A DNA stretch of 64,000 bases from Candidatus Latescibacterota bacterium. GTDB taxonomy: Bacteria > Latescibacterota > UBA2968 > UBA8231. This document shows positions 1 through 11,731 of the stretch, in pieces. A program made the translations under genes and the position numbers. Where the stretch lies: positions 32,001 to 96,000 of the forward strand of contig CBDAOB010000002.1 in the NCBI GenBank assembly GCA_965197905.1, written 5' to 3'. Below the pieces are notes generated by a model. It did not search any database. It was not told the origin of the DNA and was given only the letters and a program-made list of their open reading frames with translations. The number at the start of each line of letters is the position of its first letter. Within the stretch, counting starts at the first letter, position 1.

Positions 1-722
1 TTCCGGAGTGCCGTTAATTGCGTCGCCTTCTCGTCAGCGTTGCTCGGCTGATCGTAGATCGTGACATTGAACCACTCGACGCCATCGGAGTGTCCGATGG
101 CGTCGTAACGAACGGTGTAAGTGTCACCTACGAACGGGTGACGAATCGTGTACGTCTCCTCAGCTTGGTTGTACCCAACGATCAGGCCCCAGCAGTACGC
201 GTGGTGTGCCGGGTGATCGCTTGCTTTCTGTTCCAGACTCATCGGCTGCCACACCATCGCCGGGACGCCCTGTTGCAAGCTCGCCCGCACGGCTTCCCTG
301 GCTTCTCGCTTCAGTGCTGGGAGATCGATGTCGGTATCGTGCTTCGTCGCTTGGAACGTGCGAAACTGTGCCATATTGGGGAGGAAATCGAGCGCGAGCC
401 CCCAGTCTATGTTGTCGTGCATGACTCCCTTGCCTCCCTCTACCATCTCAAAGTGGAAGGCATGTCCCATCACGCCCTGCAACCGTGCCATCGTCCATTC
501 CGAGCGGCCGACGGTCTGCATCAGCGGGCGGAGGGAGGAGGCTAGGGTCGTCCCCGAGTGTGGTCTGGACGGGTTGACATCTACCATGACGTTCATCGCT
601 TGGCCTCCTTCCGGCACAGCGTCGGTGTTGGTCTCCTTGGCCGAAGTTCGCTCGATGATAAGGGTTGTAAGGACGAGGGCAGCCGCGATTCGAGCCAGAT
701 TGACCACGGTATAGTTTACCAT
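1..722 (-). CDS. Cassette 4 ORF: hypothetical exported protein, partial (3' end outside window)
   Basis: Not in the ORF track because it has no stop in the window. ATG at 722 follows AAGGAAGG. Frame is open to the edge: MVNYTVVNLARIAAALVLTTLII...GVPAMVW...HAYCWGLIVGYNQAEETYTIRHPF. Confidence 0.8.
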   Translation of the reverse strand, partial: MVNYTVVNLARIAAALVLTTLIIERTSAKETNTDAVPEGGQAMNVMVDVNPSRPHSGTTLASSLRPLMQTVGRSEWTMARLQGVMGHAFHFEMVEGGKGVMHDNIDWGLALDFLPNMAQFRTFQATKHDTDIDLPALKREAREAVRASLQQGVPAMVWQPMSLEQKASDHPAHHAYCWGLIVGYNQAEETYTIRHPFVGDTYTVRYDAIGHSDGVEWFNVTIYDQPSNADEKATQLTALR

Positions 723-754
723 TTCGTCCTTCCTTTCTCTATCTGTTGCATGTC

Positions 755-844
755 GGGTAACGTTATGCCTGTTGCCGAACTCGCGTAGAGAGTTGCCGAC
801 AGGCCAAGGCGCGTATGCGCCGCAGCGGCAACAGGTTGTTAAAG
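755..844 (-). repeat. attC-like recombination site (90 bp)
   Basis: Minus strand reads CTTTAAC...CCTGTTGCCG...CGGCAACAGG...GTTACCC, an imperfect hairpin. Close copy of 3468-3557. Confidence 0.88.
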
Positions 845-872
845 GACGTGGGATAGAAATTCACGGAGCAAG

Positions 873-1748
873 CTATCCCATTTCGCCGAGAGCGAACAAG
901 GTAAGAGCAATCCCAAGATACCGGTCGCGAGTTTTGGCGTCTCTGGTCGTCCCAGTCGGCCAAAAACACGAATAGGCGGCGTAATCCGCTATTCTCGTAG
1001 AATCCACCTTCTTGTTCGGTCTGCTTGCTGCCGCAGATCTGATCGCTTCAGTGAAATATTCGTCACTCCATTCGCCGTATTTGGCTATGCCGCCCAAGAG
1101 ATCGCCGACATCTCTTTCAAATTGTCCCGGACCTATGCTCTCAAAGTCGGTCAGGGTGGTCTTCTCTCCGTCTAGTACGACTTGCCGTGGCGAAAGATCT
1201 CTGTGACACATGTCTGTGTATGCATCGTGGACATGGCTCTCTATGCGCGACAAGATACTTCCGCACTCCCTGGTCAGCGGAGCGAAACGAGCACACGTGT
1301 CGGTAAGCCGTTCAATATCCCGATCTCTAGTGGTCAGACCGTCTCTGATAACTCCGAAGTCGGAGTAATCTTGTTCGGCAAACCGAGTGAGTTCCTGGAT
1401 TGTCTGAAAAACTGCCTGCAACGACTTCGGTGAAACCACATCAAGCACTAGATCCGCAACGCTCTTACTACCACAATCCGACAGAATCAAATACGGAATA
1501 CCGGAAAGCTCTCCGTGAGCAATTATCTTCGCATGGTTTAGCGAGGACCGCTCAATGAGACGATATGCCTCGATTTCTCGGCGTAAACGGTACGGTCTTC
1601 GTGGATTTAGTTTTACGATATAAGTTTTGTTCTCACCGAATGCACGCCAGACAAAGTTGCTGTTCGGCGGCAAATGTTGCGCTTCGACTACACCGGAAAG
1701 GCACTTCGTACAGACGTTATCGACAACTGCCTGGTATTCTTCCAACAT
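873..1748 (-). CDS. Cassette 3 ORF: APH/choline-kinase-like phosphotransferase
   Basis: YIVK lysine motif, REIE helix C, HRDLSPRQ catalytic loop, TDFE metal motif, ERDVG. Confidence 0.75.
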   Translation of the reverse strand: MLEEYQAVVDNVCTKCLSGVVEAQHLPPNSNFVWRAFGENKTYIVKLNPRRPYRLRREIEAYRLIERSSLNHAKIIAHGELSGIPYLILSDCGSKSVADLVLDVVSPKSLQAVFQTIQELTRFAEQDYSDFGVIRDGLTTRDRDIERLTDTCARFAPLTRECGSILSRIESHVHDAYTDMCHRDLSPRQVVLDGEKTTLTDFESIGPGQFERDVGDLLGGIAKYGEWSDEYFTEAIRSAAASRPNKKVDSTRIADYAAYSCFWPTGTTRDAKTRDRYLGIALTLFALGEMG

Positions 1749-1822
1749 TCAGAAAAGAGCGTTTGATGCCGAAAAAGTGTGATGACCCAATCTCATGTTA
1801 ATACGATCTCAATCCCATGTTC

Positions 1823-2718
1823 CTTTAACGTTTTTCGGCTTTACGACGTGGGCCTGATCCCGAATAGGGATTGGCGCGGCGGTTGCCAAAGGCAATCGCT
1901 GTGACAAAAGGCCCGTGTGCCCGTAGGGCCGAGGGGCGAATGCCCCGATGGTAGGGTCGAGAACTGGCGCGCCAGCCTTAGGGTTCGGTGGGTTCCCCAT
2001 GGCTTTCGCCATAGCCCTCAGTCCGACTCCCATCGCTACGTTTCCAGTTCCCGCCGCCTCAAACCGGACGTGCGGATCTCCCGCATCCGGCTTCCCGACG
2101 AACGTCACATCCAGGCACACGCCACAAGGACTTCACCTGGTAGTCAAGCTGCTTCCGATGCATACTAGTCTTACTGCTGGAGGCAATAGGCTCACGCCAC
2201 TCTCCAACCCTCTGCACTTCCGCAGCATGTCCGAAGTCAGGCCCCTTCCCTCCACCGGAGTTACCCGGCTTCCTCGGTACTACGCGCCTGTCCGCCACCT
2301 CATCCAGCCCAGTCTGGCCCTCGCGGGTTACCGGTTGGAGGCACTCGCTGCTTCCACCGGATGAGGCTTCCCGTGTTGCGCCACATCTCCTCTTACACAC
2401 ATGCTGTCGCCACTACCCCGGCGGAACAGCTGGGTGCGCTTGTCGCTCGACTTCCCCAGCTGCAGCGGCCTTCCCTGGTTTACGGGCAGGTCGGCTTCCG
2501 CATTACACTTTTCGAGGCCTGCTCAGCGTTTACTCACGTTACGGCCTGTGTGCTCGCCAAGTCGCCCAAGGCGACCCTCTACACCGGAGGCTTCAGCGGC
2601 TTCGTCGCCTCCACCACTGCTCCGATTGCTACCGGCTGGAGCGACCCTTGCCGGGTGGGATTCGCACCCACTGAAGATGTGCGCCTTAGCACGGCGCACC
2701 GTAAAACCGATGTTATAT
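1823..2718 (-). repeat. attC-like site interrupted by a group II intron (halves 2700-2718 and 1823-1950)
   Basis: Rejoined minus strand reads ATATAAC ATCGGTTTTACG | CATCGG...CGTAAAGCCGA AAAAC GTTAAAG. Arms TCGGTTTTACG and CGTAAAGCCGA are complementary. Confidence 0.8.
1951..2699 (-). mobile_element. ORF-less group II intron (IIB-like), 749 nt
   Basis: 5' end GTGCG at 2699. DIII-like GTAGTACCGAGGAAGCCGGGTAACTCCGGTGGAGGGAAGG. 34-nt DV GAAGCCGGATGCGGGAGATCCGCACGTCCGGTTT (2094-2061) with AGC triad and AC bulge. DVI ends CGACCCTAC. DIV is only about 140 nt with no RT ORF. Confidence 0.92.
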
Positions 2719-2848
2719 AACGTGGAACTTTCTAGAATCTCATGGCCTTAGCCCTACTTCAGATCAAAGGATAATCGCTTTTCCCAACGCCTTCCGGTCT
2801 CTAATAGGAGTGGCCAATCTTGAAATATGCGAAAATATCACGCCCGAA

Positions 2849-3268
2849 TTAAGGTGCGCCTTCCGCGAACCACTGGATCAGCTCGTTAGAATTTTTCAAA
2901 GCGAACTGCCTTTTAATCAAGCTCCCAGATCGATCAAAGAGTAATAGTTCTGACGGGTTGGCACGGTGTTCAGCGATCAGTTGGTCGCCCTCTGGGGTGC
3001 CGATTTTGGCGATGAGAAAGAAAACTTGGTCGCCAAGCCGATCGCGAGCTTTATTTATTTGTTCAGACTGGCTTACGCTAACGACAAGGCCTGGGTCGTA
3101 GACAAATACCAGCGCCGGCTTGCCGGTACCTATTTGCTCGTGGGTCATCTTAAAACCCTTAGGCATCGCCGTTAACATAAGCCCTATAACTATCAATATG
3201 GATATGGTGACACTAATAGGAACCCAAGGCTTTCGACGTGTGGAGTTGGAATTATATTCCTCGTTGAT
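2849..3268 (-). CDS. Cassette 2 ORF: small membrane-anchored protein, possibly thioredoxin-like fold without CxxC; start uncertain (TTG 3196 or ATC 3268)
   Basis: N-terminal hydrophobic helix, then GKPALVFVYD...ELLLFDRSG. Frame is open upstream to an ATC that follows AGAGGGGG. Confidence 0.65.
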   Translation of the reverse strand: MNEEYNSNSTRRKPWVPISVTISILIVIGLMLTAMPKGFKMTHEQIGTGKPALVFVYDPGLVVSVSQSEQINKARDRLGDQVFFLIAKIGTPEGDQLIAEHRANPSELLLFDRSGSLIKRQFALKNSNELIQWFAEGAP

Positions 3269-3467
3269 GGTAAATCCCCCTCTTTTTTGTTATCAACGTA
3301 CGGTTGCCAAAACTGTGATGTGAGCTGGCATACCTAATGCCGCTGATGGGCATATTTCAGGTCGAAAGCTCCGATTGTTTCCTCAGCTTCTGGAACAACA
3401 ATCGCAGGCGTTGCTTAATTAACTTCATGCTTGAGGATGCCTATTTAGCTGAGTTGTTTTCCATGTT

Positions 3468-3557
3468 ATATAACGTTACGCCGGTTGCCGAACTCGCGAA
3501 GCGAGTTGCCGTAGGCCAAGGCGCGGAGGCGTCGCAGCGGCAACCGCGCTGTTAGCC
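3468..3557 (-). repeat. attC-like recombination site (90 bp)
   Basis: Minus strand reads GGCTAAC...CGGTTGCCG...CGGCAACCG...GTTATAT. It starts 6 bp after the cassette 1 stop. Homologous to 755-844. Confidence 0.88.
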
Positions 3558-3563
3558 GTCGTG

Positions 3564-4781
3564 TCAGCGAAGAAGTAGCAGTTTCCGGGTTAGGTGTTTC
3601 CCTGCGCTCAAGCGATAGAAGTACACCCCACTCGCAAGTTCCACACCAGCATCGTCGAATCCGCTCCATATCAACGAATGTGCTCCTGCTGGCCAGACGC
3701 CAGATGCCAAATCAGTCACTATCTGGCCGGATATGTCGTACACGGAAAGTCGGATCCGCAGCTCCGTGGGCAACTGGAAACGGATCGAGGTGTCCGAATT
3801 GAAGGGATTCGGTACGTTCGGTGCGAGGTTAAGCCTTGGCTGTGATGTGTCCGATTCCTCGGCGACCGCCGTCACACGCTCGCCCTCTGGCACCCATAGT
3901 GGGAACTGGTCGTCGGCAGGATGATTCGTCAAATTGACCACGTTGCTACCGTCAGAACCCATTGCGATTATTTCTCTGTTGTCCCCTAGAAACCTGTCGA
4001 AGACGATTCTGGCGCCATCTGGCGACCATTGATGGTTCTCGTTTAGACCTCTGTCGGTAAGTTGGACGAGGTTCGTACCATCCGCGTCCACGACGTAAAT
4101 ATTGATTTGAGCGTCGTGGTGTCCCGAAAAGGCAATCCGGCTACCATCCGGCGACCAGCGCGGAGAGACCGAAAGGGAGGGAGGTCGCAGATCGACTAAT
4201 TGCTCAAGGTTTGCGCCATCCGCATCGATGATAAACAAGCGAATAAACCCTTGTTGGATTCGCCTGCCGAATGCTATTCGTTGGCCGTCTGGAGACCAGC
4301 TTTCATCCCCGCTCCCCGGTGAAAAGACAGGGAACAGCTCAACCAGATTTCCTCCGTCGGCGTCCATTACGAAAAGGCCGAAGTCTTCGTGATTCCTGTT
4401 GGAACGAAACATCAGTTTTGAGCCATCCGGCGCCCATATGGGAAACTGATTGATGGAATCGTCGTCAGTTAGCCTTGTGACAATGTTGCCCGACTCATCC
4501 TTGACGCGGATGTCATCTGGTGGGCCGTTCTCGAAAAAAACCATTTCCAGGATTCTTGTACCGTGAAGCCCATCTACACGAGTGTTATTTAAGCGTTGAA
4601 GAAACGCCGTGTTCTCATCGGGCGTGAGCCGAGCCAAATTGGTACCATCAGGATCCATGGCGAACCCTTCAAGTGCTTCGCCGTCGCGATTGGATAAGAA
4701 CGCTATGCTGTCCGCTGAAGAAGGTTTTGGATATGTCGCCCACGCCAAACCCGCGACTAAGAACAACGTAATCGGTCTCAT
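3564..4781 (-). CDS. Cassette 1 ORF: secreted TolB-like (PD40 repeat) beta-propeller with C-terminal FlgD-Ig domain
   Basis: Signal peptide, repeated W(S/A)PDGxxIxF, C-terminal NVPNPFN...ASGVYFYRL...RKLLLLR. Confidence 0.9.
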   Translation of the reverse strand: MRPITLFLVAGLAWATYPKPSSADSIAFLSNRDGEALEGFAMDPDGTNLARLTPDENTAFLQRLNNTRVDGLHGTRILEMVFFENGPPDDIRVKDESGNIVTRLTDDDSINQFPIWAPDGSKLMFRSNRNHEDFGLFVMDADGGNLVELFPVFSPGSGDESWSPDGQRIAFGRRIQQGFIRLFIIDADGANLEQLVDLRPPSLSVSPRWSPDGSRIAFSGHHDAQINIYVVDADGTNLVQLTDRGLNENHQWSPDGARIVFDRFLGDNREIIAMGSDGSNVVNLTNHPADDQFPLWVPEGERVTAVAEESDTSQPRLNLAPNVPNPFNSDTSIRFQLPTELRIRLSVYDISGQIVTDLASGVWPAGAHSLIWSGFDDAGVELASGVYFYRLSAGKHLTRKLLLLR

Positions 4782-4828
4782 CGCACTGTCTCCGATCTTG
4801 GAATCGACTACCTATTAAAGGACATGAC

Positions 4829-4870
4829 GGCTAACAGGTTGTATCCGAAGTGTGTTTCTACTATTCAGAC
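4829..4870 (-). other. attI-like primary recombination junction (G/TT at 4835); upstream extent uncertain
   Basis: GTTAGCCGTCATGTC matches the inverse end of cassette 1, but no attC hairpin lies upstream. It sits between the integrase and the first cassette. Confidence 0.65.
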
Positions 4871-5153
4871 GGGCACTCCGGGTTCATGTTCATGCAGTTC
4901 CGGTTGTTGAGTATTCGGTACATAGGATGTCGACGGTGAATCTGGTCCATCCGACATCGAACCAATGTGGCTGTGTGTGAAGAACCACCGATGAGAGGAA
5001 TGCATGTCAGGGCGAGAAGGACTTGAAGCCACGTCTTTCGACGGAGGCAAAATATCGCTGCATGGCCTTCTGTGAACCGCAGGGATTACACACGTGTTTC
5101 TCGACAGGTTTGATACGCGAAATATCCATTGACTGTCGTGTCAATGTCAATGG

Positions 5154-5995
5154 TCATCTCGTCTCATCGCGATTAGGTAAATCTCCGTCTTTAAGTTTGA
5201 TGTTATCCAGTGGCGACCGAATGCGCCGAATATCTTTCTGCATCACATGGGTATAGACCATCGTCGTCTCCGGTCGCTGTCCAGATCCTCCGCTTTCAGC
5301 CGGACGACTTCGCTGACTCGTAGGCCGGCCGAGTAAGCCACCATGAGCAGGGCTCGGTGCTTGGGGTTTCTCAGAGCGTTGAATATCCGAATCACTTCAT
5401 CACGGCTCAGGACGATGGGCAACTTGCTCTCGCGACGTGGTCGGGGTATCTCCTCCACGATGGCGGGTCTGCGCAACACCCGAAGGAAGTAGAATTTGAT
5501 CGCGCTTACGACTTGATTGATGTAGGCTCGGGAGACCTGCCGCTCATCGATCAGGTAAAGGAGGTATTGGCGAATCTCCGCCTCTTCCACGTGGCGCGGA
5601 TCCTGTTGCAGAAATCGTTGGAAGCGAAGCAGATGATTGCGATAGGACTTCTGCGTGGGCGGACTATAACCTCTGAGTCTGAGTTCCTGGTCTATCGGCT
5701 TGAGGAAGGCCTCTTCTGTGGGCGAAAGTACGGTGCGACGACTCTTCCGAGCTGCCGCGCGGGAATGTGGGTTTCGGATTTGACGTTCCTTGAATAGCTG
5801 CTGCAGACGCTCGATGGTCTCCTCCGTATGCGGTACACTCCAGCACTTCTCCTGAGGATGCCATCGGTAACCTGGTACCTTCTTGATCTTGCTGACCTTG
5901 TCGGGGTGATACGAGAAAGATACTCTGAGCCGTCCGGATGGAGCTTGATCTATTGATGCGCTACGGAATCCACCAGATGTCGAATGGCATGAATC
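5154..5995 (-). pseudogene. Integron-integrase-like tyrosine recombinase with internal deletion/frameshift and no in-frame start
   Basis: One frame is open 5995-5243: N-terminal extension, SAM-like ELRLRGYSPPTQKSY, KLPIVLS, YSAGLRVSE. A second frame (about 5276-5154) reads RPETTMVYTHVMQKDIRRIRSPLD with the catalytic Tyr. The K, HxxR and LLGH region is missing. ATG at 5990 is out of frame. Confidence 0.9.
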
Positions 5996-6068
5996 CTACG
6001 AGAGGCATAATTTCGAGGCTCTGAACCTGCGGAAATCTGGGACATTGAAAGAAAGCAAAGGAAAGCTC

Positions 6069-6851
6069 ATGGGGATACTGGACAGGTTTTCATTGAAGGG
6101 TCGCGTCGCCTTAGTCTCCGGCGGCGCGGGACCGCTGTTTGGAAGCAGCATTTCGGAAGCGTTGGCAGAAGCGGGGGCGACGCTGATTACGGCCTCGCGA
6201 TCTCTGGAGCGCAACGAGGTGTTTGCGGAGGGGTTGAAGACTCAGGGCTACGACGCCCACGCAATGGAGATGGACATCACCGAGCTGGAATCGATCGAAG
6301 CGTTAGGGGCCGGGGTGACGGAGCGTTTCGGGCGCCTGGACATCCTGGTTAACAGTGCGCTGGCGATCAAGGGAGGTGGTTTCGAGGAGCAGACGCCGGA
6401 GTCGTGGGCGTTCGGAGCCAAGGGGAACATGGTGGGTCTGTTTGCGATGTGTAAGGCGTTCGTCCCCGGGATGGTGGAGCAGGGTGGAGGATCGATCATC
6501 AACATCTCGAGCATCTACGGTGTGGTGGCGAACGATCCGACGCTTTACGAGGGCACCGATATGCGGCAGCCGCCGGATTATACCTTCGTCAAAGCTGGCA
6601 TGATCAATTTTACTCGATACGTCGCCAATTATTATGGAAAGAAGGGGGTTCGGGCGAACTGCATCTGTCCGGGGGGTTATGACTGCGGCGACCCGGCACC
6701 TTTTGTGGAAAACTACACGAAACGTGTTCCGGTGGGACGGTTGTTGGACAACGAGGATCTCAAGGGAGCGGTCGTGTTTCTGGCTTCGGACGCGTCGTCC
6801 TACGTCACCGGGCACACGCTGATGGTGGACGGCGGTTGGACGACCCTTTAG
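6069..6851 (+). CDS. Short-chain dehydrogenase/reductase (SDR)
   Basis: SGGAG Rossmann motif, YxxxK (YTFVK), VDGG tail. ATG 6069 follows AAGGA. Confidence 0.93.
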   Translation: MGILDRFSLKGRVALVSGGAGPLFGSSISEALAEAGATLITASRSLERNEVFAEGLKTQGYDAHAMEMDITELESIEALGAGVTERFGRLDILVNSALAIKGGGFEEQTPESWAFGAKGNMVGLFAMCKAFVPGMVEQGGGSIINISSIYGVVANDPTLYEGTDMRQPPDYTFVKAGMINFTRYVANYYGKKGVRANCICPGGYDCGDPAPFVENYTKRVPVGRLLDNEDLKGAVVFLASDASSYVTGHTLMVDGGWTTL

Positions 6852-10182: not shown

Positions 10183-10914
10183 ATGAACATAATCCTGATC
10201 GGCTGTGAGTTTGCGGGCAAGACCACGCTGGCTGCTGAAATCGTGGACTGGTTCGAGGAGAACATGGGCTACAGCAGCCATTTTCACGACCACTTCACAA
10301 TTCCTTCTACCGAGCTGACCGACGACGCGGGCGCCAGCTACGAAGCGGCCCATCCCCAGGTCAAGGAGATGTTCCAACGCTTCCTGATCTCTTACCACAC
10401 GTCGGAGGGATTCTACAGCGCTCCCGACCACCATCTCATGGGGTTCCACATCGAGGAAGCGGTCTACGCACCGCTCTACTACGGCTACGGCGGCCCGGAT
10501 TCGGGCTCCCCCATGCGCTCTCCGGAGGGGCAACGGACCGAGATGGCACGACACACAGAGGAAGAGATCCTCAAACATGCACCGAATTCGATTCTGGTGT
10601 TGATGAAAACAACGCCAGAAGTGATCAGGGAACGCATGGCCGCCAACATCTTCCCTGACGCCGAGACCCTCGCGCAACAAAAGTTGTCCAAGATCTTCGG
10701 AGAGCCCACCCGAGGTGTGGTACAGAAGAAAGACGTGGAACATGTGCTGGCCCGCTTCGAGGAGGAGTTCGAGGCAAGCCTGATCAAGAACAAGCTGGTG
10801 CTCGACACGACCACTGCCACCGTCGAGGAGAGCATGGCGGAGTTCCTAGAAGGCGCCAAGCCGCTTATGTCAGATGAGGACAAAATCCGCTTTGCCGAAC
10901 ATGGAAGCGCCTGA
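10183..10914 (+). CDS. P-loop NMP-kinase-like hypothetical protein, copy 1
   Basis: N-terminal IILIGCEFAGKTTLA Walker A, PEVIRERM lid-like segment, LVLDTT. Confidence 0.8.
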   Translation: MNIILIGCEFAGKTTLAAEIVDWFEENMGYSSHFHDHFTIPSTELTDDAGASYEAAHPQVKEMFQRFLISYHTSEGFYSAPDHHLMGFHIEEAVYAPLYYGYGGPDSGSPMRSPEGQRTEMARHTEEEILKHAPNSILVLMKTTPEVIRERMAANIFPDAETLAQQKLSKIFGEPTRGVVQKKDVEHVLARFEEEFEASLIKNKLVLDTTTATVEESMAEFLEGAKPLMSDEDKIRFAEHGSA

Positions 10915-10999
10915 AGGCGCGGAAGAAACGAGATGAAGCAACGGGTTCTGGGGAGGACCGGTGTGGCCCGTCGGGCCGAAAAAAAGGAGCGGATGGACT

Positions 11000-11731
11000 G
11001 TGAACATACTCTTGATTGGCTGTGAGTTTGCGGGCAAGACGACGTTGGCTGCTGAGATCGTGGACTGGTGCGAAGAGAATCTGGGTGGCAGCAGTCATTT
11101 CCATGACCACTTCACGATTCCCTCGACGGAGCTGACCGATGAAGCTGGCGCCAGCTACGCGGCGACCCATCCCCAGGTAAAGGAGATGTTCCAGCGCTTC
11201 CTGATCTCCTATCACGCGTCCGAGGGATTCTTCAGCTATCCCGATCACAACCTCATGGGGTACCACATCGAGGAAGCGGTCTACGCGCCGCTCTACTACG
11301 GCTACGGCGGCCCGGACTCGGGCTCCCCCATGCGCAGCCCCGTGGGGCAACGCACGAAGATGGCCCGAAGTACTGAAGAAGAGATTCTCCGGCGTGCGCC
11401 CAACATGGTTCTGGTGTTGATGAAAGCGACACCGGAGGTGATCAGGGAGCGCATGGCGGCCAACTTTTACCCGGACGCCGAGACCGTCGAACGCCAGAAG
11501 ATGTCGAAGCTCTTCGGAGAGCCCACCCGGGGTGTGGTGCAGGAGAAAGACGTGGAACACGTGCTGGCGCGCTTCGAAGAGGAGTTCGAGGCGAGTCTGA
11601 TGAAGAACAAGCTAGTGCTCGACACGACTACTGCCACCGTCGAGGAGACCATGGCGGAATTCTTAGAAGGCTCAATGCCGTTCATGACAGACGCGGACAA
11701 GGCCCGCCTCGCTGAACACGGAAAATCCTGA
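11000..11731 (+). CDS. P-loop NMP-kinase-like hypothetical protein, copy 2
   Basis: GTG at 11000 aligns with the ATG of copy 1. Same length (243 aa), highly similar. Confidence 0.8.
   Translation: MNILLIGCEFAGKTTLAAEIVDWCEENLGGSSHFHDHFTIPSTELTDEAGASYAATHPQVKEMFQRFLISYHASEGFFSYPDHNLMGYHIEEAVYAPLYYGYGGPDSGSPMRSPVGQRTKMARSTEEEILRRAPNMVLVLMKATPEVIRERMAANFYPDAETVERQKMSKLFGEPTRGVVQEKDVEHVLARFEEEFEASLMKNKLVLDTTTATVEETMAEFLEGSMPFMTDADKARLAEHGKS

Follow-up and report, generated by a model that had tools for sequence, protein, structure and literature searches.

The array of gene cassettes described here raises the question of whether cassettes can be captured by a recombinase that lacks I2, the insertion near patch III of the integron integrases (IntI). 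I2 is regarded as indispensable for cassette capture and serves as a filter in integron annotation (PMC7790495, PMC4889954, PMC9668308). The locus lies in a stretch of 64,000 nt from Candidatus Latescibacterota bacterium (assembly GCA_965197905.1, contig CBDAOB010000002.1, positions 32,001 to 96,000), called the window below. The source genome is denoted G000 and its contigs C1 to C5, so that the window is G000:C2:32001-96000. Window positions 1-5995 form the head of a 32-kb array of co-oriented cassettes on the minus strand, which contains 28 complete and three partial attC-like sites and extends 27 kb beyond the window, to about G000:C2:5,200. We consider it likely, from sequence comparison and predicted folds, that this array was built by an I2-less relative of the integron integrases, which would join folded single-stranded sites at the cassette ends to an attI-like site.

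An earlier, sequence-only reading of the window had placed an integrase, an attI-like junction and four cassettes on one strand, with the array starting about 320 bp past the integrase. This layout is confirmed: the GTTA of the attI-like site (4835-4832) lies 319 bp past the stop codon of the recombinase gene (5156-5154). We compared the window with contigs of further sequencing runs, designated X1, X2, X6 and X7 where they need to be distinguished. A contig of X2 covers 3483-6400, running from the deletion in the recombinase gene (see below) through attI into cassette 1, with one mismatch and no gap, and a contig of X1 covers 4978-6400 exactly, deletion included. The layout is not an assembly error, because these gap-free contigs cross the locus; note that X1 and X2 are two runs of two studies, either of which could be the assembly's own source.

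That the cassettes are units is indicated by their ends. In the 26 cassettes for which both ends could be parsed, the nine bases outside TAAC match the start of the same cassette better than that of the next cassette (means of 7.3 versus 3.7; Wilcoxon p 2e-5), and the observed score was reached in none of 20,000 permutations. In particular, the variable triplet beside TAAC matches perfectly the start of its own cassette in 21 of the 26 and that of the array neighbour in three. Such own-end pairing, which is about 13-15 nt long in the array sites, is what a G/TTA crossover between circles predicts, and the attI crossover is placed at 4835/4834 because the start of cassette 1 pairs with its own end there. 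As in integrons, the cassettes are co-oriented and bounded by R''/R' boxes, and their own ends are complementary. A second type of evidence is provided by X6, which comes from another study and contains cassette 2 at about 97% identity, free of its intron and between other neighbours; the match of this contig to the window breaks off on one side exactly at the GTTA (1826) and on the other no more than 14 nt from where cassette 2 starts. Cassette 1 is uncovered in X6 and X7 and carries no weight here. No joints marking cassette circles were seen in the six runs compared, as contigs, which drop rare forms.

The sites themselves are built differently from classical attC sites, in which two or three extrahelical bases on the R''-L'' arm direct strand choice (PMC2727003) and are docked by I2 (PMC7790495). 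In their circle form, the sites of the array are predicted to fold with an R arm of about 15 bp and a branched tip, and the R''-L'' arm has no single extrahelical bases, which the classical site at C3:200719 of the same genome shows in the usual form. Instead, 26 of the 27 predicted folds carry 3-4 surplus nt in the R' arm. As in integrons, the bottom strand is predicted to be more stable than the top strand (26/26 circle-form sites), and position 7 is C.A on the top and G.T on the bottom strand in 23/26. The interiors of the sites vary in sequence and in length (33-141 nt). At G000:C2:24403-24371 there is a minimal, 33-nt site that retains the R boxes, the bulge and a short stem.

These observations bear on the possibility that an I2-less enzyme built the array by double-strand, Xer-like recombination at short cores, with the hairpins serving termination or RNA stability. 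Such a mechanism would accord with the absence of I2, with TAAC-5nt-GTT cores that resemble a simple double-stranded site, and with the fold of the enzyme, which is as similar to archaeal XerA as to VchIntIA (Z 22.4, 20.0, 19.8). However, it leaves no role for the variable bases outside the core, whose pairing between own ends is relevant only if the site folds on itself in a circle, and the strand-biased G.T pairs, the one-sided bulge and the varying interiors also argue against it. We therefore regard double-strand recombination as unlikely.

The enzyme family can be characterized from its intact members, which are common (365 matches at E<=1e-30) and 360-390 aa in size. In the alignment, the I2 region has 28 residues where VchIntIA has 70. 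The distance from GxKxR to HxLRH is 58-62 aa in all of the 91 measurable loci (of 97) and 57-61 aa in all 30 further loci of the class of a Bacteroidota locus; it is 100 aa in five of nine IntI, the other four being unmatched by the pattern. The I2 insertion near patch III is thus absent wherever the distance could be measured. TIGR02249 scores 201-229 bits in five of five intact homologues, under its cut-off of 265, and the XerC/XerD families score 179-194 bits versus a cut-off of about 330. NF040815 is the best family for four of the five homologues, three of which exceed its cut-off of 220. A XerD-like gene of G000 is located elsewhere (C4:255924-256958).

In the tree, the nine IntI form one clade (Shimodaira-Hasegawa-like approximate likelihood ratio test, SH-aLRT, 100) with the I2-less proteins outside it, and XerC/D are separated from a group that comprises both IntI and the I2-less family. 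The approximately unbiased (AU) test does not reject a single clade for the 38 I2-less rows (p 0.606), and the tree fits either a sister clade or an ancestral grade; a nesting of IntI inside the I2-less family, which appeared in quick trees with SH-aLRT 94, is unsupported by the same test. A search of the structure Atlas returned only unnamed clusters, under 0.9. The family is a relative of the integron integrases that falls outside IntI.

Could the locus nevertheless be a canonical integron whose intI has been locally inverted, has decayed or was misassembled? The gene is broken, and its best match among solved structures is VchIntIA (PDB 2a3v, 143 bits; archaeal XerA structures, 122 and 108 bits), as such an origin would have it. 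Yet the orthologue in G002, a genome of the same genus, has a whole catalytic domain without I2, and together with the TIGR02249 scores and the gap-free contigs this refutes the explanation, to which we give practically no credence.

The window copy of the gene owes its state to an internal deletion of about 304 bp, defined by blastn against G002, which is 83% identical at the DNA level up to the junction. The 5' piece (5995-5246) contains the HARP-like domain, SAM_4 and the start of the catalytic domain and has no in-frame start codon; the 3' piece is short, lies in another frame and ends at the stop codon. The SAM-like and catalytic domains (PF13495 and PF00589) were found, and the catalytic motifs, which are whole in homologues, are mostly taken out by the deletion. 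The short form is carried by contigs of X1, X2 and X6. Since a 1287-nt contig of X6 and X7 covers 4885-6170, a related strain has the short form too. No second copy of the I2-less recombinase family, intact or otherwise, was found in G000, and because no intact copy was found there, the array in the window strain is probably orphaned.

Intact homologues do head arrays. The I2-less gene is present in 14 of 61 related genomes. Among 13 loci with long flanks, four are followed on the same strand by matches to the window-type site, another two by a single cassette whose ends match, six (L103-L107 and L109 among the fetched loci) have sites upstream on the opposite strand, L106 having them also downstream, and one contig ends early. 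Sequence comparison places an attI-like site with a GTT crossover beside the recombinase, as in integrons; its motif is found ahead of the first cassette whether the relatives are co-oriented or divergent, and it stays with the I2-less gene through the inversion. For more distant loci, we fixed a cassette-start motif from the G000 array and sought it within 450 nt after the stop codon on the same strand. It was present in 27 of 60 metagenome loci versus 2/60, 1/58 and 4/58 in control zones. In the class of the Bacteroidota locus, 52 of 101 genomes (a tally that includes one unpublished genome, G149) have a homologue at E<=1e-50; the best 30 loci have a HARP match in 25 cases and the start motif in 11/27, versus 0/27, 1/29 and 0/29 in control zones. 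Note that homologous loci are kin and not independent. Other approaches were discarded: an attI weight matrix gave no separation of zones in distant loci (11, 4, 6 and 11 matches) and was replaced by the cassette-start motif, and a generic scan for TAAC...GTTA folds produced too much noise and failed to recover known sites. Runs with small shares (sponge RNA, seawater) are evidence of neither habitat nor expression.

The sequence-only reading had proposed a distinct, poorly described cassette-capture system, to be abandoned if intact homologues lacked attC arrays or proved to be ordinary IntI in a locally inverted or misassembled setting. The proposal survives on both counts, as shown above, but two features on which it leaned do not. 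Co-orientation is no hallmark, because the six divergent loci, which have no HARP match and share the attI motif with the co-oriented members, head arrays with these attI and attC types too and fall into a single clade (SH-aLRT 100), represented by six rows in a first tree that included a wrong-frame row and long branches and was set aside, and by five in a later tree. Moreover, co-oriented canonical integrons have already been published, in Treponema (PMC3607928) and as an 'inverted' group (PMC4889954). The extra N-terminal domain does not define the system either: among loci with a HARP match, 12 of 25 are followed by the cassette-start motif, and among those without one, 15 of 35, some contigs of the latter ending before the N-terminus. 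What defines the system is the missing I2 together with the differently built attC. A divergent platform and a co-oriented one are both present in one genome, G011.

HARP domains bind branched DNA. The tentative assignment of the N-terminal domain to HARP is based on a profile of 41 homologous domains, which matches PDB 4o66 (SMARCAL1 HARP) at E 2.4e-4. Pfam HARP is found in 28 of the 41 members at E<=0.1, mostly weakly, the window copy (E 0.017) being under the curated cut-off. In the predicted model, the N-terminal 70 residues form a separate beta-beta-alpha-beta-beta-alpha domain; a single-sequence model of this domain alone was unusable (predicted template modelling score, pTM, 0.14). At L088, L101 and L073, two HARP-like matches lie upstream of one recombinase.

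The source genome also carries an intact canonical IntI (G000:C3:203960-205222, L132), which scores 366.7 bits versus the cut-off of 265, has a long open frame before its SAM domain, and points away from an array that contains a classical attC site at C3:200719 and further candidate ones at 200142 and about 193330. C5 carries two additional classical sites (C5:1353424 and 1357340). In principle, therefore, the window's array could be an ordinary attC array served in trans by this IntI, the I2-less gene, dead here, being merely adjacent; the R-box sequence and the crossover point are as in integrons. As a general account this fails, because, of the 14 genomes with the I2-less gene, 10 gave no IntI match, and eight of these 10 carry arrays of the window's site type, several of the genomes being in 1-2 contigs. 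In addition, the two site types are unmixed in G000: one pattern for classical attC matched nothing in the clusters on C2 and C3 or at loci L102-L114. Nor would service in trans account for an attI motif that stays with the gene through inversion, or for a start motif that follows the gene in 27/60 loci of unrelated metagenomes. For the window strain the account could still hold, because the strain's own enzyme is dead, and overall we judge it distinctly improbable.

Several points weigh against the capture of folded sites by the I2-less family. The recombinase at the window locus is dead and cannot be tested as it stands, and recombination, circles and binding are read wholly from sequence. 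Canonical IntI is present in G000, G002, G024 and G029, and removing the extrahelical bases does not abolish recombination by IntI (PMC2727003). For site 1 in its array form, the two strands are predicted to fold with nearly the same stability (-25.3 versus -25.5 kcal/mol). In the C3 array, the own-end test gave 4.7 versus 4.1, with seven pairs parsed, and is uninformative. Finally, the start motif is missing in 33/60 and 16/27 loci, so that the heading of arrays is shown for part of the family.

Under the reading that we prefer, capture by the I2-less enzyme would proceed as follows. Cassettes would travel as circles, in each of which the site is restored where the two ends of the cassette meet. 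The bottom strand of the circle would fold, act as the substrate and be joined to double-stranded attI at G/TTA. The strand would be chosen by the 3-4 nt, mostly T-rich bulge of the R' arm and by the G.T versus C.A pairs, which would replace the extrahelical bases gripped by I2. One strand exchange would take place, to be resolved by replication as in integrons. The HARP-like domain may help to bind the junction of stem and bulge and would be dispensable.

Table 1. Coordinates of the features at the head of the array, given as window positions
Feature	Position	Strand	Description
Tyrosine recombinase pseudogene	5154-5995	-	I2-less NF040815-like family; NF040815 103 bits, TIGR02249 91 bits
HARP-like N-terminal domain	5768-5980	-	Profile match to SMARCAL1 HARP
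Deletion junction	5265-5278	-	About 304 bp internal loss, at short direct repeat
Candidate cassette promoter	5121-5150	-	Sigma-70 consensus match only, 10/12, 18-nt spacer
attI-like site	4832-4849	-	GTTA at 4835-4832; predicted crossover between 4835 and 4834
Cassette 1	3474-4834	-	405-aa TolB/PD40 propeller protein with FlgD-Ig tail, open reading frame (ORF) 4781-3564
attC-like site 1	3471-3554	-	84 nt
Cassette 2	1829-3473	-	115-aa ORF 3196-2849, no Pfam family
attC-like site 2	1826-2715	-	141 nt minus intron; intron inserted 12 nt after TAAC
ORF-less group II intron	1951-2699	- (cassette strand)	749 nt, Rfam RF02003 106.8 bits
Cassette 3	761-1828	-	291-aa APH-family phosphotransferase, ORF 1748-873
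attC-like site 3	758-841	-	84 nt; bottom-strand fold z -3.46
Cassette 4 start	1-760	-	387-aa ORF 722-<1, leaves window

The remaining features of the array are as follows (Table 1). The promoter search, which is consensus matching only, found three sigma-70-like sites versus 1.1 +/- 0.9 in shuffles. Further along the array, transposase-like frames at G000:C2:15313-14303, 21167-20082 and 27608-26379, which by eye we take to be IS110-like, interrupt it, one of them exactly at a crossover site. Elsewhere in the window (10183-11731), two ORFs that closely resemble each other, of 243 and 256 aa, lie in tandem. More clusters of the window's site type, many of whose members are decayed, occur at C3:289000-363200 and C1:172000-195000 (30 and 6 profile matches), and no recombinase of the I2-less family was found beside either.

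The intron in site 2 belongs to a set of 12 whole copies and one truncated copy on C1-C5, seven of these 13 being in array sites. There, the copies occupy the top strand at a distance of 12-13 nt past TAAC, and the motif at which they lie is complementary to an intron loop; the intron-free joint (1950-2700) is seen in X6. A 1985-nt relative with an intact reverse transcriptase frame directly follows one intron copy (G000:C3:1187174-1189158) and is likely the helper of the ORF-less intron. A second ORF-less group II intron, of other sequence, splits a site of a second subtype at G000:C3:349430-348603. Group II introns are known in cassette arrays, where top-strand cases have been reported and are rare (PMC7923331). 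The present intron is like the group IIC-attC introns, and like the group IIB/E introns in clusters of attC sites lacking integron-integrases (CALINs), in recurring in cassette recombination sites (PMC7923331). However, the IIC-attC introns insert on the bottom strand, at R'', unlike the ORF-less intron of the window with its top-strand position past TAAC.

If a family without I2 builds arrays, it would escape the I2 filter, and integron counts would change in groups thought to be integron-free. 'The lack of intermediates' has been named as a limit on studying the origin of IntI (PMC7790495), and the intact members of the family make this question testable. Furthermore, the presence of both systems in one genome, each beside its own site type, offers a ready test of cross-specificity. 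On the Acinetobacter plasmid NZ_CP041297.1 (L154:4043-6160), a truncated recombinase, 46.6% identical to an intact homologue (P0013) over aa 138-369, precedes tet(X3). A short inverted repeat and the cassette-start motif are present 172 nt past the recombinase stop codon, and an attC-like site start follows the gene. The literature listing contained no description of tet(X3) as a cassette, and the junction suggests that arrays of the I2-less type can be a source of resistance genes.

Compared with canonical integrons such as those of IntI1 and VchIntIA, the locus has in common an attI-like site adjoining a tyrosine recombinase, single-gene cassettes that all point the same way, R boxes of the form TAAC...GTTA with a G/TT crossover, self-complementary cassette ends and a predicted bias towards folding of the bottom strand. 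It differs in having no I2, a 3-4 nt bulge on the R' arm instead of extrahelical bases on the R''-L'' arm, branched tips and an optional HARP-like domain, and in the length of the own-end pairing, which is 9-11 nt in integrons (PMC2727003). To judge from its sequence, the locus works like an integron, and its enzyme fails IntI membership. In the 'inverted' integrons of Treponema, the integrase is likewise transcribed toward attI and the cassettes (PMC3607928, PMC4889954); those enzymes are counted as IntI, whereas the present family lacks I2 and includes both orientations. The NF040815 name, 'site-specific tyrosine recombinase/integron integrase', is a sequence label only, and archaeal XerA is more distant by sequence than VchIntIA.

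Beyond the layout of rAID-1, we found in the literature, subscription papers being mostly uncovered, no description of a cassette integrase that lacks I2 and has a site grammar of its own. rAID-1 of Bacteroidales (bioRxiv 10.1101/471110), which we compared by its published description, is the closest published layout: it has a 5' XerD-like recombinase, at least two co-directional downstream genes and intergenic repeats, as does the present locus, and its intergenic motifs were called 'reminiscent of integrons'. It was reported in 226 of 423 Bacteroidales, a share close to our 52/101 for the class of the Bacteroidota locus, and its close homologues were called restricted to Bacteroidales. In contrast to rAID-1, whose cargo has a guanine-plus-cytosine (GC) content of 41% or lower and includes immunity genes, the cassettes here have a GC content of 46-61%, and none of the four window cassettes matched a PADLOC or immunity family. 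The part of the rAID-1 text covered gives no analysis of site fold, crossover point, I2 or HARP.

On balance, we lean somewhat towards the view that these loci represent a widespread second class of integron, which would capture folded single strands without the I2 helix by reading a one-sided bulge, would have its own attI and attC grammar and coexist unmixed with classical integrons, would occur in both orientations and include rAID-1, and may be the missing intermediate between Xer and IntI. The present locus adds a dead enzyme on a large array, both systems in one genome, evidence for flips of orientation within the family and a cassette found in two contexts.

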